Positions 3,819-23,670 of a stretch of 64,000 nt of DNA are shown piece after piece. Under the pieces are notes generated by a model that was not told the origin of the DNA, did no database searches, and saw nothing but the letters and a program-made list of their open reading frames with translations. Positions within the stretch are counted from its first letter, which is position 1. Each line of letters starts with the position of its first letter. This stretch comes from Mayamaea pseudoterrestris (taxonomy: Eukaryota): contig BROI01000015.1 of NCBI GenBank assembly GCA_027923505.1, positions 434,001 to 498,000 of the forward strand, in the 5' to 3' direction. A program made the translations under genes and the position numbers.

Positions 3819-4315
3819 ATGGCAGGCGACAATCAGCAGCAGCATCCCTTCTGTCATCTTCCTGGCGATCCGTCCTTGATTCTCACGACCAATGTTGATT
3901 TGGGCGACAAGAAGCTGGACATCATGAAGGCTTGTTCCAAGGCAATTGCATCTGCTACGGGAAAGCCAGAGAGCTATGTTGGTTCGTATTTCGTGTGTAA
4001 TTTGTAATAAACACATTTCACTTTCTTCTTCGCCTTGCACCAACTCTGCTTCAACTTTCTCGTGTGATTTGTGATTCCACAGCGGTCAGCATCACGGACA
4101 AGGCATCCGTCATATTTGGAGGTTCGGATGCTCCGACGGCACTTGGTTGTTTGTACAGCATTGGAGGCATTGGCGTTTCGTCCAATGGCCAAATCCAAGC
4201 GGCGGTGACAGATCAGCTTGAATCCTTTGGCGTTGCTGCCGACAGAATTTACATCAACTTTTTCGACATGGATCGAGCCAATGTTGGATGGAGTCGAAAG
4301 ACCTTTGCAGGTTAA
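3819..4315 (+). CDS. MIF: Macrophage migration inhibitory factor (MIF)/tautomerase family protein, 2 exons
   Basis: Intron 3982-4082 (GTTCGT..CAG, phase 1) joins PSLILTTNV..TGKPESYV to AVSI..FGGSDAPTALGCLYSIGG..RIYINFFDM..NVGW..TF. An alternative in-frame ATG lies at 3651. Confidence 0.88.
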
Positions 4316-4472: not shown

Positions 4473-5915
4473 TTAGTAACACTCTGTGCAGCAACTGCAA
4501 GAAACCTCTTGACAGTCAGCCGTGAGCGCCTTGAAATCATACGCCGCCGACTGGATACGATCGCAGACCGTAGAAGGCATGGAGCCCGACAAGTTATTTT
4601 CGTAAAGCTCTAAAACTTCCAAGTCGGGCAAGTTGCTCAGCTCGGATGGGACTTGGCCACTCAAGCTGTTCTCGTACAACCAAACGCGACGAAGACCACT
4701 CAAAAGACCAATTTCTGTTGGAATTGGACCCGATAGAGTCGCATTAGTGATGGACAATGATGCCAAATCTGGATGATTCGATCCAATGCTTGTTGGAATG
4801 CTGCCTTCGATTGTGTTGCTGTCCAACCAGAGGGCAAAGATGGATGGCAAACTTCCGGATGACAGGAGCGTCGGTAGATCAATCGTCAAAAGGTTGCGGC
4901 GCAAGTAAAGGTAAATGAGGTTGGGAAGCTGCGCGATGCTGGAAGGAACGTCACCGCTCAAAAAGTTGGATTCGATTTCCAAATGAGTCAGCTTGGAGAG
5001 ATTTGAGAAAATGCTTCCGTCCATGGGTCCTTGCAGAATGTTGTAGCTCATGGTAAGCTTCGAGAGGCTCGTCAGAGCGGAAATTGAGGGCGGAATGCCC
5101 GACGTGCAAACGACGTAATTGTCTTCCATTAGAAGCGTCTCAAGGTTGCCAAGATGCGTGAAAGGTGTCACATTTGCATCTCCATCGACATATACACTAT
5201 TTGTCGTCAAGTCAAGCGTCGTGAGGCTCTGCAAGAATGCCATTTCCAAGGGTAATGTACCCGTCAAGGAATGCTCACGGAGCAAGATACCAACGACACT
5301 GCTGCCATCCTCACTGCATGTCACTCCTTCCCAGTCACATTCCGTAATGCTGCTAATCCAGTTGATGGAGCTTGTCCATCCAGGAATGTCTCCTTCTCCA
5401 TTATTCTTGATGATCTGCGAGTTGGATTGGCTAAAGGTGCTGTAGTAAAAGACGCCGAGTGCGTAGCGCTGCACCTTTTGCGCGCGCTCCAGCAAGGCAT
5501 AGTTTCTTGATCCAGCTACCCACTCCAGCGCAAGCTGTTGCGGAGTCCCGACCTCCAGCATCTTTGAGTCACCATTGAGGCCGTACGTATTGTAGTAAGA
5601 TAGAAGAGTGTTCCCAAACTCTTGCTTGTTGGTTTGGACAACATTGGCTGGAAGCTCCGGCACAAAGACCACCGGTCCATCGTTGCCATCCCTCTTGGCC
5701 TGCGCAGCCTTGCTGGAAGGAACGGCAATCGCTGTAATCAGCAAGACCAGACCAAGAAAACCTCCAAAGTAAAAGACTTCCCTGCGCGCATACCAAGGGC
5801 GGCGCGACCGATTGTCCAACGAACTGATCGTCTCGTGAAAGTCAGCCATCATATCAGCGTCGTCATCCTTCAAGGATAGTTCGTGAGTATCGTAAATGGA
5901 GTCGTTTGCATGCAT
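4473..5915 (-). CDS. LRR protein with N-terminal transmembrane anchor (type II)
   Basis: TM segment FGGFLGLVLLITAIAV; cap PQQLALEW..QRYALGVFYYST..ECDWEGVTC; LxxLxLxxNxLSGxIP repeats; C-terminal ADC..CSCCTEC. Confidence 0.88.
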   Translation of the reverse strand: MHANDSIYDTHELSLKDDDADMMADFHETISSLDNRSRRPWYARREVFYFGGFLGLVLLITAIAVPSSKAAQAKRDGNDGPVVFVPELPANVVQTNKQEFGNTLLSYYNTYGLNGDSKMLEVGTPQQLALEWVAGSRNYALLERAQKVQRYALGVFYYSTFSQSNSQIIKNNGEGDIPGWTSSINWISSITECDWEGVTCSEDGSSVVGILLREHSLTGTLPLEMAFLQSLTTLDLTTNSVYVDGDANVTPFTHLGNLETLLMEDNYVVCTSGIPPSISALTSLSKLTMSYNILQGPMDGSIFSNLSKLTHLEIESNFLSGDVPSSIAQLPNLIYLYLRRNLLTIDLPTLLSSGSLPSIFALWLDSNTIEGSIPTSIGSNHPDLASLSITNATLSGPIPTEIGLLSGLRRVWLYENSLSGQVPSELSNLPDLEVLELYENNLSGSMPSTVCDRIQSAAYDFKALTADCQEVSCSCCTECY

Positions 5916-6221: not shown

Positions 6222-9200
6222 TTAATTGTCCAAGCAAGCGGTGCAACAGTTTTCCGTAGGGCACACGGTGCAGTTGGCGTAAACCATCACCTCGCGACCG
6301 CAGAGGGCCGTCGGCAGCTGACTATCAAAGGCATTTCCAAACAGGCCAAGATACTGTAGCCCAGTAAGTGATCCGAGTTGCGATGGAAGAGTGCCTGTCA
6401 TTTCGTTAAAGTCGAGCTGCAAAAAGTACAGGTCCTTCAAAGCGCCAATCTTGCCCGAGATGGATCCAGCTAACATGTTATTGTTCAAATCCAATACTCG
6501 AAGCGACGTCGCACCAAACAGCTCACTAGGCAAGTCCCCTGTAAGCATATTCTTGTCAAGATCAAGGTACTGCAGATGTGGAAGGGAACCGAGCGATGAA
6601 GGGATTTCTCCTGTCAGCAAGTTATCGTCGAGACCAAGCTCCTCCAAATACGGCAAGCTGCTCAGTTCCTCTGGTATGCTTCCACTCAAATAAGTTTTGT
6701 CCAGATTAATAGCGACGACAAATCCCTCGTTGTTGCATCGAATACCACCCCAAGCGCATTCTTTCGAGCTGCTTAAAAACAAATCGCCGTCGCAAGAGCT
6801 TGAGTCGCTCTTGGCCGAGCATTTAGTCCATTCATCACCAGATGTTGAAAAGTAAAGAGTAGCCAAAGCATACCTTTGAAAGAGTAATTGGTCAGTAGGA
6901 CAGACAAAGAATGCATCTTCGCTGCTAATCCAAGATAAAGCACGAGCTTGAGGAGATGTTGAATCATTTATTGCGCTTTCGTTTGATATGAATGATAGAT
7001 TAGAGGCAATAGCTGCCTTTCGTTCGCTCGACGACATCATGCATACAGTCGTTTTTGTCGACGGGTTTGCGGTAGTGACGGCAGTCGGAGACGGTTGTCC
7101 AGGCAGTTGTGACGGCTGTCCTGAAGAGAGATTTGAATTCTCTTCAGTATTTAAAGCTGAAGGACTCAAGGAACCAGCTGCATTGAGCAGCGAAGTAGGA
7201 AGAAAGCTGGGTGTAACGGAAGTGAGCGCAAGAGGACTTGCAGTAGGTGCTTTACTGGGAGTGTCGCTCACTAGCTCCGTCGGGTGGTAGCTTGGTTTGT
7301 TCAAAGGGGACATACTCGACAACGCCGGCGAAAGCGTGAGTTGTGAAGGGCTAACTGATGTTAGAAACGTTGGGAAGTGAGACTGAACAATTGACGGCAC
7401 TGGGCTTGAAGGGTCGGATAAAGAAGACGTAGGGGAACGCGACGGCAAATCAGATGGTCGAGAGCTTGTGGCAGTGGGCATTCTGCTTGGAAGGTCTGAA
7501 GGTGCGTCTGATACAACCTTTGCCTTTGTTGGCTTAGAATCAGGTAAAGATGATGGATATTGAGACGGTAAAGCCGGCGTAGTGCTCGGAAAGTCTGATG
7601 GTGCATCGGACGCGGCAAGCATACTTGTTGGCGACAGGCTGGGGGAATCTGATGATACAAAGCTTGGAGAGAGCGATGGAATGTCCGATAATCCGATAGT
7701 CGACCTGACAGTCGGTGTCGTGCTAGGATCATCTGAGGGTGCATCAGATGCTAGTAAACTCGTTGGTGAAGGAGTGGGGAAGTCTGTTGTTCTATCGCTG
7801 GGTTGCATCGATGGTGTGTCGGAAAGTTTAAGGGTGGGAAGCACGGACGGCGAATCTGAAAAGAGTAAGGTCGGTACGAAACTAGGTCTATCCGAAAGCA
7901 ACTGATGGCATTTACGAAAAAGAGTCAGAAAACAATGGTTGACAATGTAATTGACACCGGTAGACAAAAACTTACCGCACTTGGAAAAGCAGTCGCTGTC
8001 GGCTCGACCGTCGGCGTGTCGCTGGGAACATCAGGCTGCTCAGAAGAAATTCCTTTTGGTGGGGACGTGGAGCCAGAGGAGGGATGCACACTTGGTTCAT
8101 TATCCGAAGATGCAGAATAGTTCTTGCAATCGATGATACAGTTTTGAGCCCGCTGGAAGCCAATGTTCAGATACGTCGCTATAGAGTCCTTGCAGTCAGC
8201 ACAAGGACAAAGTTCGACTGCGAGGCAAACAACAGTATTTAATTCAGCGCATGTGGTGGTAACCGTAGGAAGAGTATTAACGAGGCAAGAATCACAAGCG
8301 GTAACAGAAACATCATCCATCTTGGTGAAGAAACAAGCTTCCAAGTTTGCCTGTGCTGTCATATCATGCAATACTTCCCAGGTCGGTGATTGTGACGGAT
8401 ATGCGCTGCGTGTAATTATTGGGATGTAAGTTGGTTTGTCGGAAAGTATTGAGCGGACGCCCGACGGTGACCCAGAATCAGAGCTGCTTGGTACTTGCGT
8501 CGGCCGATGATTATCAGGGACGGAACTTGGACGAATTAATGCTTGGCATCCAACGGAGCATCCAGCGCTGGCTTCAAAGCCACACGTCAAATAGTTTTCA
8601 ATTTCCGCGTAGCATAAGTCGCATGGACACTTTGCGACGGCTTCACAAGCGAGTGACTCTATGTCGCTACATGATGCTCCGGGTTGGGGCAGAAAGTCAA
8701 CGGTGCAGCTATCACAGATTTCTGAACCAAGTTCGGTGTAATATCGTTGGTAGCATTGATCCAAATACTCGGGCGCATTGACGCATGAGATTGGTCCAAG
8801 TGTGGGACTACTCGACGGCAGATCGCTTGGTAGTAAAGTCGGAGCACGTGATGGCATTGCGCTCAGCGATTTGCAATCAACATGGCATCCTCGACTGCTC
8901 TCCAAGCCACAAGTAAGATAATTCTCTATCGCAACTTCACATGGCGAGCAGGGGCATGATTCAATGGCGTTGCAAACAGAATATTCTGTATCGCCGCAGC
9001 TATCGTCGTCGCTGGACATTGCTATCGTTACACATGCATCACATTTCACAGATGTTTCTTCATCCATTTCGGCATCGAAGCATTGGTAAAGGTATGATAT
9101 CGCGTTGGTGCACGACATGGGTCCAAGCGTGGGATGGACAGTTGGCGATGAAAATGGCCGATTCGATGGGAGAGACATCATCGACGAGGCAGGAGTTGCG

Positions 9201-12200
9201 CTGGGTAGCCTGGAAGGTGTGCCATCGCAGTCCATTAAGCATCCACGTGTTTCCTCAAAGCCGCACGCTAAAAACACTTCCAAAGGTTCTGCACATGGGC
9301 CACAATTACAAAAGGCAAGTGCTCCGCATGTGATTGATTCTAGATCACCACAATTTGTCGTCTTTGGTGGAATCAAATCGACGACACACTGGTCACACTC
9401 CTGTACTGCCTGATCGTTGATCTCGACCGCAAAACATTGCTCAAGTCGTTGTCTCGCGTTGTTGCACGTCAAGGAGCTGAAGGTTGGCAAAGCAGAAGTT
9501 AATTCTAATATCCTTGCCGACGGGGCATTGCTAGAAATATCACTGTACGCCGTTGGGACAGAGTCTTCTTTCGATTCTAGGGAAGTTGGGTAGTTTGACG
9601 AGAAGTGTGTGCCTTGAGGCCTATGCGATGGAAAATCTCTTGATCTAATTGTAACGCCTCCTGGTGAAACGCTGGGACGAGCCGGTCTGCCGTCGATCCC
9701 GCCGAAAATATGGGACGGCTCATAGGTGGGACTGTCGGATATAGCGTCAGAATTGAAGGGAATCGGCGGTGAAGAAGAGTCACTTGATGGGTAGACTGTA
9801 AATTTCGTCGTCGCTTGCGGCGCGAGTGTTGGCAAGTCCCTCGATCCATTTGAAGAAAGCTCGGGAGACGCACTAGGAAAGTTTGATCGATCCCTCGCTC
9901 CAACTCCCCCAAATTTAAAAGAGGGTGCGGCAGAAGGAGATGGGTTGTCTGTGATTTCCAGATTTGACGACGCGCTTGGCGAGTCCGACGGAAACGCAGA
10001 CACAATTTTCGGATTCGTCAATGGAGCACTTGATGATCGTGGCATCGATGTCGGCCGGTCACTCAATCCATTGGATTTGTCTTCAGGCGACAGGCTAGGA
10101 ATGTCTGATCTAACATGTCCGCCAATCATTAAAGAAGGTGCGCTGGATGGAAGATCGGATGGCTGGTCCGAAGCGGCGTAATTTGGCGTAAAACTTGGCA
10201 GGTCTGATGATGACTCCCAACTAATTGATGGAGTAACCGATATATGAAGAGTGGCTTGTGGCATGGCTTCGCCTCCGACTCTGTCAAAAATCAAGGAAGG
10301 TTCGTTCGACGGGCGATCCGATGAGGCATCGGAAACGGTCAGACTTGACAAGGAGCTTGGCAAATCTGAAGGCGATTCAGAAGTGATGGACGGATAATCT
10401 GACGGAATACTCGAGAGCTGGGGAATGGTAGTTGGCAGGTCTCTGGATCCGTTGATTATGTCTGCAGGCGACGTACTTGGGTAGTCTGATCTGTCGTCTG
10501 CGCCTCCAAAAACAAAGGAGGGTGAAGTAGACGGACGATCTGACAAGTCGGGTGATGAGTGCGAGGACAAGACATGTGGCCTGTCCGATGGCAAGATGCC
10601 TGGTTGAGCACTGTTCGTTGTGGCACCTGGCGATATACTTGGAAAGGCTAAATAGTCATCTGCACCTCCTTCTCCTTCGAAAACAAAGGGAGGGGAAGTA
10701 GATGGACTATCCGAGGGCGCGTCGGATGTAGAAGGCGATGGCAAGACACTTGGCCAGTTCGATGGCAGCATGCTCGGTTGGTCACTTGGAACTCTGCTTG
10801 GAGCATCGGACTGTTGCTCAGAAGGAACGTCGCTTGGAAAAATGCTCAGCCGGCTTGAAGGAGCATCGCTGAGGTTTGAGCTTGACTGGAGGGACGGTGT
10901 ATTGCTCAGAGCAATACTTGGTTGACTTGAAGGGACATCGCTCGAAAGCTCACTAGGTTGGAGTGACGGAGTATCGCTTGAAGGCAGACTAGGTTGCTTT
11001 GTTGGTGCATTCATCGGAGCCCTACTTGACTGTTTGATCGGTTGTACTGAGGGCTGATCACTCAAAATCGAAGCTGCAAGCACAGTTGGAATGTTGCTTG
11101 AAGGAGAACTTGACCCCTCGCTGGGTAGCAAAGAAGGTTGATCGCTCACAACGGAACTCGGTGGCGATGAAAGGACGTCGCGAGGAGAACCACTTGATTG
11201 CTCGCTAACCACCAATGACGGCTGATTACTTAAATTCGAAGTCGGGATCCTTGTTGAAATGTCGCTTGAAGTAATACTTGGCCATTCACTGGGTTGCAAA
11301 GACGGTTCATCGCTTACAGAGGAGCTCGGTGGTGATGGAAGGACGTCCCGTGGAGAACTACTCCATTGCTCGCTAAATACCATTGACGGCTCATCACTTG
11401 GTTGCGTGGATGACTGCTCGACTCGCACTTTACTTGGCTGCACCGAAGGTTCGTAGCTCATTGTCGTTGCAGTGCTTGAGTGCAATGAAGGTTGATCACT
11501 GGATACAGTTATCGTTGGTAACGGATTATCGGTACTTGATTGCTCGCTATATAACACAGAGGGAGATTCGCTTGGAACGCTGCTAAGCTGCGCTGATGGT
11601 TGGCCACTAGGAACAGACATTAGTTGCAATGACGGAAAGTCGCTCGGATCGCTAGTTGGCAGCTCATTTATCGTGAGAAAAGGTTGGTTGCTGTGTGTCG
11701 AAGTTGAAAGCACATTGCTAGGACTCAAAGTCAATGTACCTGTTGGAGCAGCGCTTGAGCTTATAGTCGGACTTGATGTCGGCATATTCGTTGAATATAT
11801 GCTTGGTTCGTTGCTTGGAAGCGATGACTTCGCATCTTGAGGCAACACGCTTGAAGACTCCGAAGGCGAGCTTGTCGGCAAAGACGTCGGCAGGTCCGCC
11901 GCATCATAACAATAGTTGCGGTCTCTAGTACCGAATCCTTCACATCCTGGAACGGGCTCATAGTATGTTCGCACCCAGCAGCGCAAGTCACCAGTGCAGT
12001 CATCGTCATTGTAGCATTCTCCTTGACATTTTTGCAACGGATACTCGAGGTAGTTGTCGGCGCCGTCTCCCATAACGACCAAGATTCCTGGCAAAGGCTT
12101 GTAGCAATAGTCAAGCATGCTTACTCCCTCACCGGCGCATCCAGGGACAGTACCGAAACCATTGCGTTTAAAGCATGACAAACCAAACGCGCATTGGTCA

Positions 12201-12607
12201 TCAGTATTGCAGTCGCCTTGGCAGTTCTGAAGGTTTTCTCCATAAGGAGGCTCGCCAACATATACTAAAGCAGGAAATGATACATCTTCCTTTGTAGAGT
12301 TTGCTGATGCTTCCGTGAAATCAGTAGGTTCAGGCTTGCTCGTCGCCTCGCTCGTCTCGGAGGTTTGCTCGATGACAAATCCACTAAAATTCGGAACTCG
12401 TTCGAATCGCGAAAGATGCTTCATGTCTGCAATGTTCTTTGCATCATCGCATGAATATTTAAAGTCGTCTCCAACTTTCTCAAGTCGACAGTTGGCTTTA
12501 TCAGCTTGTGCTACAACGATGCAGTGGACGAGGACTATGGGAAGCAATACGGCGCTGCAGATTCTTCGACGCGGCGACAGCATTTTGCTCCGTTGTATTT
12601 GTTGCAT
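6222..12607 (-). CDS. Giant secreted protein (~2103 aa): signal peptide, 2 frustulin-like acidic Cys-rich domains, Pro/Ser stalk, 4 Cys-rich repeats, C-terminal LRR; 2 exons
   Basis: Intron 7902-7975 (GTAAG donor, CTGAC branch, CAG acceptor, phase 0) joins ORFs 7925-12607 and 6222-7967 in frame. Motifs CQGDCNTDDQC..CFKR..VPGC and CQGECYNDDDC..CWVR..VPGC; many PSxxPS repeats; LRR cap and repeats at the C-terminus. Confidence 0.8.
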
Positions 12608-13322
12608 AAAAAACGTAAGGGCGCTCGTCTACTTCTGGAAACTATAATAGTATGCGTATGAGCGAAGAGATGAAGCAGTAGAGGCGCGTCGTTCGGTCGT
12701 TCGAGAAATGAATGAAGGTCTTGGCTGCGAAATCAGCGATGCGACAGATCCGGGTCTTGAAACGGTGGTCAAGGTATCTTCGTCAACAGCCTCGAATAAA
12801 AGGAATGTCACGAAACCGATGAAGCAGTAGTCACGAAACATCAACGAGCGAGGCGAGCCGATGATTCTCTTGTCCACACATTCGATGAGTTTTTAGCGCG
12901 TTGATCGTGATTGCAATCAATTTCTCGAGAAAAGCAGGTAAAAAGTTGGCAGAAGATTACTACACATTGAATCTGACGACTAGGATGAATCCGCCACAGA
13001 GTATGGCAGAAGAAGGAAGCCTGAAACATGAGCAAAGGGGAAGCAAAGACTTGACCTTTTACTACTAGCTACTAGCTCACGAATCAGAAGAGCAGGTACG
13101 AATGCATGATTCTAGACCAGGTGATAATACATACACATATCCTGCGAATACTTTTGCAGCTAATCGGATTGAAAATATACGGTTTAGGAGTAAGAGCGAA
13201 CGAGTGATCGCGGCTAGACGTCTGTCAATCGGTGGCTTCCGCGGATTCACGCGAATTCATCATTCACCACTATTGTGCGGCATGCGGCTGTTCTAGCGTA
13301 AGTAATAATCTACCGAGTCATT

Positions 13323-15224
13323 TTACCTACTTACCCAAGTATGGAGTGTAACCGTAGATGCGCCGATCATTGCAAGTAATCCAAAGGCAATAACAAGCCG
13401 GTTTCCCCACAAGCGCTGGGTCGAGATGTTTGGCACGAGATATGAATGGATCAAAGGAGGAAAGACAAAAGAAAGCGGACAACCAAGCAACGATCCCATC
13501 AAGCTGACCACTTTGTCGAGCGACTCCATTGTGCAAACTGCGATTGCGGCCAAGAGCAAGATGAGCAAGCTGCTGAGGACATTTCGATGCAAGCGGACAC
13601 TGCAATTCCTGGAGTACATTGCCGCCTTGATTGAGCGAACAGTAATTTCAAGTGCCGGAAAATTCTGGAGCGGAAACGTAAAGATAACAGCAATCGAGTA
13701 GGCCAATTGGACGGTGTTAGCTTGCGAACCTATCGGTAGAGACGTCGTCAAAACTGTTTGCACTTGCGGTCCAAAGCCAGTCCAGCAGACTAGTCCAAAG
13801 ATGGTGTAAAAGGCAACGACAGCAAGAATCACAGTATTGTAGACGGAACCAAATTGTTTGCGACGTTCGACGCCATGTACAGCTTCTTGTAATGGAATAA
13901 GAAGCGTAATGGATCCTTCAAACAAGACGACCTTGTCGGTAACAAAAACACAACAAGACACGAGTGAGGACAACTATAACCATCAAATCATCGATATCCA
14001 GCTTAGCAACTCATGATACGTACACATGTACCAATGAAAAGATACCACGTATTCTTGTAAGGAGTAAGCGATTGAAGATGGTCCGCAATGTTAGCAATCG
14101 TTGTTGCTTCACCTTGAAAACTTTCCGCCAAGGCGTATCCAAGGCAAGTTGTCAGTCCGTATAATATAAGCGTGTTGGCAAAAAGGTTTGTGAGCGTGAG
14201 CTTTCGAATATCTCGCAGCCACGATAGCGGAACTTGTATCACAATCATGACGAGCAGCAAATGGCTTGCTGAAACAGTCAATCCAAACGCATTGTTTGCA
14301 AACGTGTGCAAATTTTGCGAAACAAAGATAAAGTACGTCAAGCACACTCCAGACTGCATCAAAGCTATTCCGGTTTTGACGATTCCTTCGCCATGCGCAC
14401 CCAGAGCTCGATATGCCAATTCTGGATACGACAAAACTGTTCGCTTGCGAGGCGTCGCGCCATGCAAAAGATTGACAATTTCCTCGCTCGCCTCTTGCTC
14501 ATATCGCCAACATTCCAACAAGCAATTTGAGGAGTATAAGAAGAAAACTGTTGTAACGACCAGCACAGGTAGCGCAACGAGATAACCTGCCGTAGCAAAA
14601 CCGTGTGGCAGATATAGAATGGCAGGTCTGTGTTTAGATGCAGATGTGAGTATAGTACAGTCTGCGAGAGAAAGAAGTCTAGGCGTTCACAATTTCAATA
14701 CGCACCCAACCATTCCTTTAATTATACCAAGAGTTGCTGCTGTCAATGTACCGCCAGTAACTTCTTCGTCTTCATCGCCTTGCTCCAAATCGGCCATGCG
14801 ATCCGAGACGGACGAAGGCAATGGCGACCAAGCCTGTCGATCTTGCGACTCCTCATGGGCCGAAATTATACTCTTCATGTAGGCATCTTCAGTTCCAGTG
14901 TCAAGCAAAATACTGAGAACCAGCTGGTGTCTTTTTCTGGAGGATTTTGTGGTTTTTCGAACCTGTGGTCGAGGTTGTCTGGACTTTTCAAGCCCAAGTT
15001 CTTTGGCAGCTGCAGCCAGCCGACTGTCATCTTTATAAGCAACGCAACAGGATAACCATACATTGAGCAACGAGCCATCAACTATTACATCAAAACAATT
15101 CTTACTTACCTTCTCCTGCGGTGTACGTTTTGAGATGAGATGTACGGCGATTGTGGTCTTCCATTGCCAGAGGGTCCGTTCCGTAATTCGATGATTCGCC
15201 CGCTGGTAGAGGTGGACGGTTCAT
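13323..15224 (-). CDS. Amino acid/auxin permease (Aa_trans) family transporter, multi-exon
   Basis: IIKGMVG|PAILYLPHGF across an intron, SYPELAYRALG, CLTYFIFVSQN, LFEGSITL, FTFPLQNFPA and many TM helices. First exon ATG at 15224 ends at a GTAAG donor near 15109; internal exon boundaries are only partly resolved. Confidence 0.85.
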
Positions 15225-15721: not shown

Positions 15722-17298
15722 TTACGACTCGTTTACTTCAATTTTTGTGCCCTTCCGAATCTGTCCCCAACCAATCAGTCTCCAGTGCTTGTCAACGCGG
15801 CGACTCAAAGCAATCTTTTCGCCTTCCTCCGTACACACAGGCTGCGTCAACGCAATCTTGGCAAGTTCGCCCTTGACCGCACTCACACGGCCACCCGTGG
15901 CAGTCGATCCAATGTTGACCATGAGAATCTCAGCTTTGCTCAACTTTTGAACCTTGGCTTGCTTGCCTCCGTCACTCGTTTTGACTCCGAGCAGTCGTCG
16001 CAACAAGTAGTAACTTATTTCGATTTCCGAGTAAACATCCGGCAATTGTCCCTTCAAACCGAGCACCTGGCCAACCAGCCGATCAGCTCGTGTCAACGTT
16101 GGATCGATCTTCGTACCAACACCAATTAAACCTCCCGGCACTGCATATTGCAAATCATTTTGTTCAGCATACAGACTAAGCACCTTGCTATAAATAGGCG
16201 TGCATATCATCTTGTCATCCTGCTTATTGACAATGCCTGGTCTAACTTCAATTTCGTCGCCCACCTTCAAAACTCCTTGCAATATACTTCCACCAGCAAC
16301 GCCTCCCTGTAAGTGGCTCACATCCTGTCCAGGTCGGTTGACATCGAAGCTTCTAATGACGATAAGCTTCGGTGGACTCGTAAAGTCGCGAATCGGCAAA
16401 GGAATCTTGCGGACCAGATACTCGCATACAATGTCCATATTATACTTGAGCACTGCCGAGATGGGAATAATGGGAGCACTATCAGCCACAGTTCCAGCGA
16501 CAAACTTGCGAATCTGCTCCTGCTGCGCCAGCGCCGCGTCTGGCTTGACCAAATCTACCTTGTTTTGCAAAATGATTATGTGCTGAAGCCGCATAATTTC
16601 CACGGCAGCCAAATGCTCGGATGTTTGCGGTTGCGGACAAGTTTCATTGCCTGCAATCAATAGCAAAGCAGCGTCCATGACGGCTGCTCCATTCAACATG
16701 GTGGCCATGAGAATGTCATGACCCGGGCAATCGACAAAGGAAACGTGACGACGAAGGCTGTATTCCTTGCCCTTTTCAATAAAGGTGTCGGCATGTGACG
16801 ATCCGCGTGACGTAAATGATGGGCCAGTAGAGTTGTCTTCAATGGCTTTTCCTTGATAAATCTTGGCATTAGCGTATCCAAGCTTGATGGTAATGTTACG
16901 CTCCAGTTCCGTCTTGAAGCGAACTGTTTGAACGCCCGAAAGCGCTTTGACGACGGTCGACTTTCCGTGAGCGACATGTCCGATTGTACCTACGTTAATG
17001 GTAGCCTGACGAGATATCTATAAAAGAGAAAAATGAAAGAATGAAAAAACAATGGGAGCATGGAATTACGGTACTCCGATCAAAAGAGGTAGCCGATCGT
17101 TTTTACAAGGGAGACGATCACTAGCATTCTTTCTCATCAAGAATTACAGCGAAGCAGCAAACTCACCACTTCTTGGGTCAAAGCTGTGATCTGATTTAAG
17201 TCTAATTTCGTGATGTCCTGCTTGGACAGATGAGGCTGTGACGGGTTCTCCATGGGCCTGACATCGTCATCGGCAGCTCCAGCGGCGAAGGCAGTCAT
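15722..17298 (-). CDS. EIF2S3: Translation initiation factor eIF2 gamma subunit, 2 exons
   Basis: Intron 17018-17166. [53 protein letters not shown] and [14 protein letters not shown] are highly conserved eIF2-gamma motifs. Confidence 0.97.
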
Positions 17299-17603: not shown

Positions 17604-19912
17604 TTATGAATCCTTACAAGGTGTTATATAGACTCCATGACATTGACAATCAGTAAATGTCAAGATCTTGAAGTATGGATTGCTCTCAGCAATCTTTTTC
17701 AGCCACTCGTTGCAAGCGCCACATGGAGCTAAGGGATTCAAATCTTTTCGCTTGGCAGATTGCTTCAAAAGAACGGTCCGCATTGAACTCTGCGTCGACG
17801 CAGCGGAGAAGAGTTCTATTCTTCTCATTTGGGGTTCGTCATCGTCATCGTCAATGACAGTCGTGGGCGTGACAGTCGGCACCATCATGAACGACGACTC
17901 CATTGGCATGTCGCTGGCATTCTGCCGCACGGGAAGAGGATTTGTTAAATGCCACTCAGTAGTATCGCCTTCGCTACCAATTGAGCTCTTGCGACTAGTC
18001 TCATCCAACGAGGCATTGCTAATCGTTCGAGGAAACGTTGACTGGGTCTTCACATCGGGCTCTTGGAATGGTACAGCCAACACGGCGAGGACCTTCAAAT
18101 CTTGTCGCTTGAGAGCTGGATTGTTGGCGAGCGCTGTTCCGATCACATTTCGTTCAGCACAGAGAGAACCGGTTGGCATGGACACTTCCATATTCGTTCC
18201 TCTGTAGATGATAGGTTCTGTATTGCGCGATCGAACTAGCAACACCGCCAAGACTGGTTTGCGAGTCTGCCGTAGCCAGAACCGGCTCAACTCGTGAGAC
18301 TCATCACGAAACATTTGCTGGACTTCCCGAGAGAATGCCTTGATTTCGTCAACAACGCGGGCTATGTCAGCATTGTCCTCAGGCGCCACAGGCAAATGGT
18401 TCGTATCAACCGGCGGAACCAGCTCCATCGCAGCGTAGGAATGCACTTCAATATCGTCAATGACGATTTTGCATTCGTGCCAAAACGTCTTGAGCTGCCA
18501 AAAATGATAGTAAATTGGTTTGTAGTCACGAAGGCCGCCTAACGATACAAGCGAAGCAAATCAATCGTGTCAGCAAGCTCTTAAAAGCAGCACTTTCTGC
18601 ACCTCTACAACTTACACTGAATCGCATACGTCCTCGCGTTACTCCCATCCGCCCATGAAAGCGTCGTCGTAAAGGAGGTGCGCCAGTCTTCTTGAAAGGG
18701 CGGCTCTTCGCCGTGTAAACTTTGCAGCGTGGGCGTATTGAAGGCATCTAACTCATGTGGATAGGGCATCCCTCGTGCGTGTGCGTCTCGATAGGCATGA
18801 ATCTGCGGCAACAAGACTTCTTTGACGAAAAGTATATTGTCATCAAAACGAAAAATATTCGAATCCGAATGTATCTGAACCACGGTAATGCTCGGGTCAA
18901 CAACGCCAACGAAGTGCTTGATGAGATCTGCACATACTGCAGTCGAGTTCGCCTTGGGATCCTGCGATGTGTCGCGCGGCGTGCCAACGCCAGTGACCAA
19001 AACCAAGACACGATGGACCTTGCTGCTGGTGCTATCTCGTTGATGCTTGAGCGCAATTTGCTGCTTCCAACGAGGCAAGAGACTGGCGAGTAATGGGAAA
19101 AAGACATGCCGCACCTGCATATTGGGTAGCATTTTCTCCTGGTCCCGCCCTCGGACGCGCACTTCAGTATTGTCCTCAACATCTACTGGACGACCAAGAT
19201 ATAAGCCGGTCGGCGTTGGAGGATGCTGAAGGTAGTCGGATGGATCGCCGCTGCCTTGCTCCGCCTTTGGCAGGATGATCGAGTATCGTGGCGAATCGTA
19301 CTGCCGCTGATAGCAGGGAAGCAGCACGAGCGACGAGGGCGACATGTTTTGACAGATCTTGCTGCAGTATTTGTGGAAGCGAGAAAAGCGAGGACGACAT
19401 AAGATAAAGGAAGATTCGTTGCATGAGTCATTGGGGCGACGTGCATCTGTCGCCATCGACGCGGCAAGTTCGAGGCCGAGCACGAGATCCGTGTGAGAAA
19501 CGTTGTGCACGAGAAGCTCCAAGTAGCGCTTCTTATTCTTCGTCTTTGATCGATCTTTCTGCTTTGCCTTTGACGGTGGCTCTGTCGTCGCCGTTCGGGT
19601 AGATTTGTCGTCGTAATTCCGTGACATTGTGGCTCTTGATGAGGTCGTCGACTCATTCGTTGGCCAAAATGTACGCCAAAGCACAAAGCTCATGAAAAGC
19701 CGAGGCTGGAACATTGCACAAACCATGCTCAACAAGTCAGTTGGGACGAAAGTATTCTTGTTTGCCCTGCTTAGTGTTGAAGTTCTCGTGTTTGATGCAG
19801 CCGTCCTTGACAGAACATAAAGCGTGGCACCCGAGCAAAGGCCCCATACAGCTGTTTGAGTAACTAACATCAGCCAAGTTTGATCACCGTCTACCGATAA
19901 TCGATGTGACAT
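17604..19912 (-). CDS. Cytidine deaminase-domain protein with large N-terminal extension (~743 aa), 2 exons
   Basis: Intron 18539-18615 (GTAAG..TAG, phase 1) joins the two ORFs in frame. C-terminal GTNMEV, SLCAERNVI and PCGAC match the CDA zinc-site signature. Confidence 0.78.
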
Positions 19913-20040
19913 GGTGGATAAAAGACAGTGGATTAGTCTCGGGAGAGACGAAGCCTCGCGAGAATGAGGAAATGGAAAATGATCTTGGACTTTCGTCCGT
20001 CATGGTCGCGAACCGCGCGAAACGTGGGCAATTGTAAACA

Positions 20041-22053: not shown

Positions 22054-23670
22054 ATGCAGCCTCTTCCAATCCAACAAGATGTCGATAAGGAGTCGCTTTG
22101 GAGTCGTCTCTGTCAACGATGCCTTCCCAAGACGGCTCTTGGCGCTGGCAAGATGGCTTGCCTCGTTTCCACTTGTGCCATGCTTCTCGGCATGGCCTTG
22201 CTAATCACATCGCAAGTCCTTCAGCACCAGCATGCGCAAGACTCGGCTCCGTCGCAAACTTTTGTCGACACTACCGACTATGACAGTCTTAACCAAGAAT
22301 GGATCCACCTTCGCGAAGAGCTTGTTCCAAACATCACCCTTGTTCTTCCACACTCACCACAGGCGCGCGCTCTCATGTGGCTTTCCGCTTTGAATCAGCA
22401 AAACTCTACCAAGAGTCCATCGCCTCTCCCAATTTCGGAGCGATATGCTCTCGCCGTCCTCTACTACCATTGGACTGGATGGGCTTGGCATATTCCGCAC
22501 GAGAATTCACTTGCGGGAGGAGGCTGGAACTTGACGTACATGGCTCAAGAGATGCAACAACTGCTTGAACGTGGCGGAACAGATGAATGCGAGTGGTTTG
22601 GCGTAACATGCGCGGACAATGCTGCTGCAACTGACGGCGTCAAGACGGTTACGGGCCTGAACATGACGGGAGGGACCAACTTTTTTCTTCGTGGAACCAT
22701 CCCATCCGAGCTGGGACTCTTGAGCAACATGCAAGCCTTTTCAGTGGAAAGCAATCATTTGCTTGGGACGGTCCCGCACGAGCTGAGTGCCTGGTCGGAT
22801 TTGCGAAAGGTCTCTTTTCGCTTTAATTTACTCACTGGACTCGGTGAATCGTACAAGAGTTGGACTCAGCTTGAGGTCTTGGAGTTGGGAGAGAACAAGT
22901 TCCACGGCAACATTTCCTCGGCTGCCTTGCGCAACATGAGCAATTTACATACTCTCACGTTATCCAACAACCGGGAACTGCGCGCAGATGCTCCATTGTT
23001 CATTGATGCTGACAGCATAAATGGACCGCATTGGCCGAAGCTGGAGTACGTCTCGGTGGCTGTCACACAAGTCGAAGTTGACCTTTCATACTTTTCCGCC
23101 AAAAACTACCCCGTCTTGAAGAGCATTGACGCCGGACAAGCTGCATTCGCCGGATCGATCCCTGCGACGATTGGCGGCTTGACACATCTGGAGCTGCTCA
23201 ACATGATCAATCCCGTTGCTGGACAACTAAGCGGTTCGATTCCGTCGGAGATTGGCTTGTTGTCTGACACTCTCACGTTCCTCGCACTTGACGCGAGCGG
23301 CATTTCTGGTAGCATACCGACTGAAGTTGGCGAGCTGACCAATCTGCAACTGTTGAGCGTCATTATGAATTCAATCACTGGCTCCTTCCCGACGGAAATC
23401 GGTAATATGGCAAGTTTGGAACAGCTTTCCGTTTACCAAACCCATCTGACTGGAACCATACCAACTCAGGTCGGTCGTTGCACCAAGCTAGCCGAGCTCC
23501 AGGTCATGTACACTGATCTGACGGGAAGCATGCCGACTGAGATTTGCGCTCTTAAGGATAACACTCAGGATGAGCTCTTTATGATTGCAGCTTCCTGTGC
23601 TGTTAGAGCTAGCTCGGCAACTCAGCGGATGATAACGTGTACTTGCTGCGCCATATGTTACGGCGACTAG
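22054..23670 (+). CDS. LRR protein with N-terminal transmembrane anchor (type II)
   Basis: TM segment CLVSTCAMLLGMALLI; SPQARALMWL..ERYALAVLYY..ECEWFGVTC cap; GSIPSEIG-type LRRs; C-terminal CTCCAIC. Confidence 0.88.
   Translation: MQPLPIQQDVDKESLWSRLCQRCLPKTALGAGKMACLVSTCAMLLGMALLITSQVLQHQHAQDSAPSQTFVDTTDYDSLNQEWIHLREELVPNITLVLPHSPQARALMWLSALNQQNSTKSPSPLPISERYALAVLYYHWTGWAWHIPHENSLAGGGWNLTYMAQEMQQLLERGGTDECEWFGVTCADNAAATDGVKTVTGLNMTGGTNFFLRGTIPSELGLLSNMQAFSVESNHLLGTVPHELSAWSDLRKVSFRFNLLTGLGESYKSWTQLEVLELGENKFHGNISSAALRNMSNLHTLTLSNNRELRADAPLFIDADSINGPHWPKLEYVSVAVTQVEVDLSYFSAKNYPVLKSIDAGQAAFAGSIPATIGGLTHLELLNMINPVAGQLSGSIPSEIGLLSDTLTFLALDASGISGSIPTEVGELTNLQLLSVIMNSITGSFPTEIGNMASLEQLSVYQTHLTGTIPTQVGRCTKLAELQVMYTDLTGSMPTEICALKDNTQDELFMIAASCAVRASSATQRMITCTCCAICYGD

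Follow-up and report, generated by a model that had tools for sequence, protein, structure and literature searches.

A spliced gene of Mayamaea pseudoterrestris joins frustulin-type acidic Cys-rich domains to a leucine-rich repeat domain and belongs to a conserved, putatively secreted lineage

Do two long frames of the diatom Mayamaea pseudoterrestris, one with acidic Cys-rich domains (ACR) of the frustulin type and the other with a leucine-rich repeat (LRR) domain, encode a single protein, and what might such a protein do outside the silica wall? Both lie on the minus strand (7925-12628 and 6222-8030 in the list of open reading frames, ORFs) of a stretch of 64,000 nucleotides, positions 434,001 to 498,000 of contig BROI01000015.1 in assembly GCA_027923505.1, which is called the window and whose own numbering is used below. 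A preliminary description, made from the letters alone, had proposed that a 74-nt intron fuses the two frames into one hidden protein. Inspection of this intron (7975-7902) revealed a GTAAGT donor, a branch-like CTGAC and a CAG acceptor, joining phase 0 to phase 0. The spliced product of the ACR-LRR gene is 2103 amino acids (aa) long (1544+559), while without splicing the frame ends at aa 1561. A second in-frame ATG at 12583 provides an alternative start.

The transcript evidence consisted of four public contig sets (X1 to X4) from one study, none recorded as RNA, which hold assembled contigs and not long reads. Exactly nucleotides 7902-7975 were missing from the contigs of X2, X3 and X4 (three of the four sets). 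The introns of neighbouring genes (3981-4081 and three between 13929 and 15110) were also skipped, all four in X2 and X3 and one in X4, and since these introns were skipped too, X2, X3 and X4 behave as RNA. In X1 every intron was retained at even depth, with a 1-nt insertion within the 7902-7975 intron. Record 18 of X3 is one spliced contig (6213-12229) that connects the LRR with ACR2 and almost the whole of ACR1. Indels of the coding part, among those listed, were 6 and 9 nt long, and the 22 coding variants listed comprised seven synonymous and 15 non-synonymous changes and no stop. Two separate genes were ruled out by the exact 74-nt skip, which also excludes an alternative acceptor at 7856 that is out of frame; read-through into the neighbouring gene (4473-5912) was rejected on the weak ground that no joint was seen in the contigs and that depth falls between the genes. 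The ACR-LRR locus is a real, spliced, single gene, as had been proposed. It was not hidden, since its 2103-aa product is letter-for-letter identical to a public protein that had already been called in its spliced form (P0007).

The encoded protein comprises, in this order, a signal peptide, a two-Cys motif, ACR1, ACR2, stalk 1, four Cys repeats, stalk 2, an N-cap, six LRRs and a six-Cys C-cap (Table 1). The mature form has a computed mass of about 218 kDa and a computed pI of 4.2, and a Pfam scan returned only LRR families above the cut-off. Hydropathy placed the sole hydrophobic segment at about aa 13-38 and revealed no membrane segment past aa 38 and no transmembrane (TM) or glycosylphosphatidylinositol (GPI)-type tail at the C-terminus. 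The signal peptide, the missing TM anchor and the LRR carried instead on a mucin-like stalk had all been claimed beforehand, and this anatomy agrees with them. Stalk 1 contains a 168-nt tandem duplication at 11085-11399.

Table 1. Features of the ACR-LRR gene, its product and the adjoining LRR gene, in window coordinates
Feature	Position	Strand	Remarks
Exon 1	7976..12607	-	aa 1-1544
Intron	7902..7975	-	74 nt, GT-AG, phase 0; removed in contigs of three of four runs
Exon 2	6222..7901	-	aa 1545-2103 and stop
Predicted signal peptide (aa 1-35)	12503..12607	-	basic n-region, hydrophobic stretch (aa 14-36), A-Q-A cleavage site; by hydropathy and inspection
Short two-Cys N-terminal motif	12443..12496	-	common to P0016, P0037, P0042, P0093
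ACR domain 1	12092..12250	-	6 Cys, CQGDC..VPGC (motif at 12223); preceded by lineage signature YxGEPP
ACR domain 2	11900..12052	-	6 Cys, CQGEC..VPGC (motif at 12028)
Stalk 1	9476..11890	-	805 aa, Ser 26%, Pro 15%, no Cys
12-Cys repeat 1	9224..9475	-	unnamed four-helix module
12-Cys repeat 2	8870..9121	-	same module
12-Cys repeat 3	8543..8794	-	same module
Repeat 4	8123..8374	-	10 Cys; two Cys lost together
Stalk 2	7050..8122	-	333 aa, Ser 24%, Pro 17%, Thr 11%; intron falls inside
LRR N-cap	6723..7049	-	helical, Cys-containing
Six plant-specific-type LRRs	6309..6722	-	conserved Asp ladder, concave face
C-cap	6225..6308	-	six Cys, end of protein
Neighbour, separate gene	4473..5912	-	type II TM-anchored LRR protein, 479 aa; 310 bp downstream

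The ACR motif had been recognised as that of the frustulins, and the searches concur: besides carrying both motifs, the ACR pair matched eight frustulin-like ORFs of the same genome (30.6 Mb in 41 contigs searched) with E-values down to 5e-20. These eight ORFs are typical frustulin-like sequences in which one to three ACRs are followed by a Trp-rich domain or its start; in all, 13 other matches to the pair were found at nine places. Taken by themselves, the frustulin-like genes and the type of LRR point to a diatom. An ACR profile gave no convincing match to PDB sequences. At least eight typical epsilon-type frustulin genes (L002-L013) were located at C1:1346349-1377510, C4:289413, C5:353216, C13:287343, C24:405934 and C29:219533; three of them sit within 31 kb on C1, where L002 and L003 are near-identical.

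The published frustulin hexapeptides CQGDCD and VPGCSG fit the motifs found here (PMC4712521). With the frustulins of Cylindrotheca fusiformis (alpha-), Navicula pelliculosa (epsilon-) and Fistulifera solaris (1-11) the protein shares a signal peptide, two six-Cys ACRs with both hexapeptides and acidity, and arguably a Pro-rich low-complexity region (PMC4712521, PMC4557024). It differs from them in that it has no RXL presequence, its first R-x-L lying at aa 722, no polyglycine (no run of three or more Gly) and no Trp-rich/ricin-B C-terminus, the nine Trp of its 2103 aa being scattered and its C-terminus being the LRR. Its stalks (15-17% Pro, 24-26% Ser) are placed after the ACR pair and do not link ACRs to one another; it is about 2100 aa long, whereas those frustulin-like ORFs of the genome that are complete encode 377-494 aa; and its ACR pair is of a distinct subtype (YxGEPP) relative to frustulin ACRs. 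Judging from these sequence characters, we call the protein ACR-containing, not a frustulin.

The ACR+LRR combination, described at first as a chimera of this locus, recurs in other proteins. The ACR pair had 2400 relatives at E <=0.001, and among the best 150 of the 2400, which were examined, three carried an LRR, the protein itself included. A search with an ACR profile yielded 50 longer proteins, five of them with LRR Pfam matches. Altogether seven of 195 distinct ACR proteins share the LRR subtype, namely P0007, P0018, P0042, P0274, P0276, P0277 and P0278. The six proteins other than P0007 are 1004-1193 aa long and combine four or five ACR-like domains and a Ser/Pro/Thr stalk with the same LRR of six repeats, and none has a TM segment; P0018 looks N-terminally cut. 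None of the seven members has lost the ACR pair, and as many as five ACRs occur in one protein. The LRR domains are 38-46% identical between lineages, with the same repeat count, and three of the seven homologues are mutually 67-77% identical. Proteins P0274 and P0276-P0278 were retrieved by ACR similarity alone, yet their LRRs fall in one clade: the LRR phylogenetic tree (29 rows) placed all seven ACR+LRR proteins in a single clade with support of 95/89. Three shorter proteins with the same YxGEPP signature (P0016, P0037 and P0093) are probably fragments. By these comparisons the ACR+LRR proteins form a conserved lineage, which is not unique and not common either, and no description of it was found in the literature searched, which left out most subscription papers.

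Searches aimed at further members added none. None of the 120 rows of an LRR-profile search, which was swamped by long LRR proteins, carried an ACR; an N-terminal search with P0042 recovered only P0042 itself among 170 candidates; none of 79 metagenome ACR loci, most of them short, had an LRR or 12-Cys match; and an Atlas search with P0274 returned generic LRR clusters only. Rows 2 and 3 of the last search are chlorophyte clusters joining an LRR to the cellulose-binding CBM1, a possible wall-tethered LRR design.

Pfam matches were present in 16 of 32 chosen long ACR proteins. The fusion partners of ACR were carbonic anhydrase, PhoX, trypsin, multicopper oxidase, GSDH+PKD, Hint, TSP1, DUF1800 and purple acid phosphatase (fusion proteins P0281, P0290, P0284, P0287, P0295, P0312, P0307, P0308, P0066, P0072 and P0132). 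ACR may be a general wall-tether or Ca2+-binding tag of secreted enzymes, and since it occurs on many enzymes, an ACR fusion as such is ordinary.

The LRR domain was modelled with a pLDDT of 87.3 as a short plant-type LRR. It matched the short ectodomains of SERK/BIR proteins (PDB 4lsx_C, 6fg8 and 4lsc) with target-normalised TM-scores of 0.76-0.82; the TM and kinase parts of those proteins are absent here, the helical N-cap is larger, and the match is generic to the fold and shows no function. Repeat positions were assigned to the concave face by standard LRR geometry. Position 7 is Asp in 30 of the 33 repeats of the seven ACR+LRR proteins, whereas 29 other LRR loci of the same genome have Asp there in 17 of their 181 repeats; for position 5 the figure in the seven proteins is 16 of 33. 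Mean pairwise identity was 0.62 at the concave variable positions versus 0.28 at the other variable positions (p 4e-6, a value that ignores relatedness), and with five rows only, Asp still occupied 23 of the 25 cells of repeats 1-5. The conserved Asp-ladder LRR face of this lineage is new here. Such a conserved acidic concave face points to a fixed partner, probably cationic or Ca2+-bridged, and favours such a partner over variable non-self sensing.

Our preferred reading, in which we place about even confidence, is that the protein would be a secreted acidic glycoprotein or scaffold of the coat or pericellular matrix, docked by its ACRs, with the LRR holding one fixed endogenous partner. Following export by the signal peptide, the ACR pair would bind Ca2+ and dock the protein into the frustulin coat. 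The Ser/Pro stalks would act as O-glycosylated spacers, longer in this species and interrupted by four inserted disulfide-bonded helical modules; as a rule of thumb, an extended glycosylated stalk of this kind reaches some hundreds of nm. The six-repeat LRR would then bind one constant partner from the organism's own wall or matrix, probably cationic or bridged by Ca2+, for which a basic protein, a peptide or a polyamine-bearing molecule are candidate classes. Overall the protein may serve either as a cross-linker or as a scaffold that captures a ligand, in a manner comparable to plant LRR-extensins (LRX), of which it is not one. Tethering to the frustule, like every step after secretion, is something that we infer. 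Frustulins bind Ca2+ and coat the wall (PMC4557024), and a whole frustulin1-GFP fusion was displayed on the surface from a construct that included the Trp-rich lectin-like domain (PMC4712521).

Several points weigh against docking in the coat and against a cationic partner. As a mobile module present on many secreted enzymes, ACR does not necessarily indicate attachment to the frustule; the part of frustulin responsible for anchoring is unmapped in the accessible portion of the surface-display report (PMC4712521); and the RXL motif of the frustulin presequence is missing. The ACR-pair tree groups the seven proteins only weakly (SH-aLRT 85, together with five other rows), and the 67-77% identity among three homologues inflates the conservation statistics. 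Instead of holding a cationic partner, the acidic face might bind Ca2+ or have a structural role.

The protein might instead be released into the matrix (mucilage, adhesive trail or biofilm) and remain unbound to the frustule, with ACR as a Ca2+-binding module and the LRR cross-linking the matrix; we regard this as unlikely. ACRs on carbonic anhydrase, PhoX, trypsin, multicopper oxidase, TSP1 and others are consistent with release, as are the lack of the RXL presequence and the nearest paralogue of the LRR in the same genome, which is secreted and stalked and carries no ACR. Schulze 2015 and Buhmann 2016 reportedly dealt with secreted LRR and mucin-like proteins of Phaeodactylum. Secreted diatom LRR proteins with glycoprotein-like regions are known from the Nitzschia putrida secretome, and the present protein resembles that class in its signal peptide, absence of a TM segment, low complexity and plant-specific LRR; ACR and 12-Cys modules are not mentioned for it in the available part of the text (PMC9054022). 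One LRR protein has been listed among silica-associated proteins (10.1101/2021.09.18.460806). Release fits less well with the retention of the ACR pair in all seven members, where one protein may have up to five ACRs, and with the ACR proteins studied to date, which are wall-coat proteins (PMC4557024).

Plant LRX follow a comparable design: their LRR has no membrane anchor, a wall-protein module keeps it in the wall, and its ligand face is conserved (PMC7132299, PMC7357788). LRX have 11 N-terminal LRRs and a C-terminal extensin domain, form a disulfide-linked dimer and bind RALF peptides (PMC7132299, PMC7357788), whereas here six LRRs are C-terminal and the ACRs N-terminal, and the likeness is one of analogy, not of homologous architecture. 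That the protein might be an independently evolved diatom equivalent, a conserved receptor fixed in the frustule coat through Ca2+-binding ACRs, we consider distinctly improbable; in this scheme its Asp-ladder LRR would capture an endogenous cationic peptide or polyamine-bearing molecule of the wall, to be passed on to LRR co-receptors in the membrane or incorporated into the wall. If true, it would represent a wall-integrity or wall-assembly signalling module for a silica wall.

A wall-displayed sensor of non-self, for mates or pathogens, as suggested in the preliminary description, is disfavoured and less probable than release into the matrix. The plant-type LRR fold would suit such a sensor, and the long stalk would push the LRR outward; in diatoms, LRR proteins of the MRM2 family have been linked to mating type (10.1101/2024.04.15.589526), with PMC5485032 also cited for the precedent. 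The concave face, however, is conserved rather than variable at about 40% identity, the opposite of species-specific or arms-race recognition, and the protein has no TM segment, cytoplasmic part or signalling output, whereas MRM2 has a TM segment. A narrower form, with one invariant microbial or pheromone molecule and a separate co-receptor, may apply. Least probable of all is that the protein inhibits or holds an extracellular enzyme at the wall, its acidic concave face clamping a basic hydrolase: polygalacturonase-inhibiting proteins (PGIP), secreted plant-type LRRs with such a face, do inhibit hydrolases, and the face here is likewise acidic and conserved, but the LRR has only six repeats, no PGIP was among the 39 fold-search rows listed and no enzyme partner is known.

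How the organic coat outside the silica is organised or monitored by diatoms is poorly understood. The LRR of this lineage, being short, foldable and conserved in its acidic face, could serve to fish for its partner, and the ACR pair by itself is a candidate for the wall anchor, a part left unmapped in the available text of the frustulin reports (PMC4712521). The survey also pointed to ACR as a mobile module on many secreted enzymes and revealed an unnamed 12-Cys surface module. Frustulin ACRs and secreted stalked diatom LRRs were already known, the gene itself had been called and the function of the ACR-LRR protein is proposed from sequence; the ACR+LRR layout is unstudied.

The four Cys-rich repeats were present as first described. 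They are 84 aa long and align on 12 Cys, and the joint loss of two Cys in repeat 4 is as expected of a disulfide pair. An AlphaFold model of the module shows four helices (pLDDT 90.9). No match was obtained in Pfam, among PDB sequences below E 8, in Foldseek at E <=0.001 or in the Atlas, and the best VIA fold match (Z 5.9, rmsd 2.4 over 58 residues) was generic; none of these failed matches proves a new fold. Pleuralin PSCD repeats are of about 90 aa and composed of Pro, Ser, Cys and Asp, while the repeats here are Pro-poor (2-6%) and four-helical; no pleuralin appeared among the PDB sequence or fold rows for the module, a result that does not exclude kinship. The module is absent from all six other ACR+LRR proteins and thus looks like a lineage-specific insertion into the stalk.

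Elsewhere in the genome 15 further matches to the 12-Cys module were spread over seven places, of which contig C17 holds five, and all seven fetched regions confirmed the module. The proteins mostly start with a signal-like segment and two end in a GPI-like hydrophobic tail, so that the family apparently consists of secreted or GPI-like surface proteins; four that were scanned had no Pfam match. The members on C17 are L034:4232-5821, L035:4969-6735, L036:4119-6356, L037:4907-5857 and L038:5232-6308, and the others lie on C4 (L039:4042-5100) and C12 (L040:4886-5122). Loci L038 (C17:382000-391999) and L039 (C4:977000-986999) are near-identical multi-gene blocks in opposite orientation, representing a segmental duplication or an uncollapsed haplotype.

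The adjoining TM-anchored LRR gene was confirmed on the same strand. It shares with the MRM2 family and with the ACR-LRR protein the plant-specific LRR class with Cys caps; relative to such TM-LRR proteins the ACR-LRR protein has no TM segment, belongs to another LRR clade and has fewer repeats, and the Asp ladder is absent from the TM-LRR paralogues. Duplication of this neighbour followed by domain recruitment, as had been suggested, did not find support. The window LRR is 29% identical to that of the neighbour, with a different repeat number, and the neighbour ranks 53rd of 146 genome matches, while identity to the six ACR+LRR homologues is 43-46% and colinear. The nearest paralogue in the genome lies elsewhere (L042, C26:241384-245040) and is a secreted LRR protein with a Ser/Thr/Pro/Asp stalk and neither ACR nor TM segment. 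Since the fusion is common to sequences 40% identical, a recent tandem origin does not fit, and on sequence comparison a recent tandem duplication from the neighbour is unsupported. Two points count the other way: forcing the two LRRs as sisters costs 15 log-likelihood units and is not formally rejected (p-AU 0.089), and, given at least 58 places with LRRs genome-wide, chance adjacency is not very likely, so that an ancient tandem origin is possible. A third LRR gene of the window (22057-23670, plus strand) is of the TM-anchored type and unrelated to the ACR-LRR clade, and at C6:770550-771230 LRR matches lie within an open frame of 9573 aa.

Other genes were noted in the window. A small two-exon gene at about 3820-4315 (plus strand), whose intron 3981-4081 is spliced, has a product that resembles a MIF/tautomerase-type protein. 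On the minus strand, an amino-acid-transporter-like gene with three spliced introns (13323-15220) and an eIF2-gamma-like gene (15722-17017) were identified by inspection, and two adjacent ORFs at 17604-19999 may be exons of one gene; one of them carries the motifs CAERN and PCGAC, which we take to be cytidine-deaminase-like.

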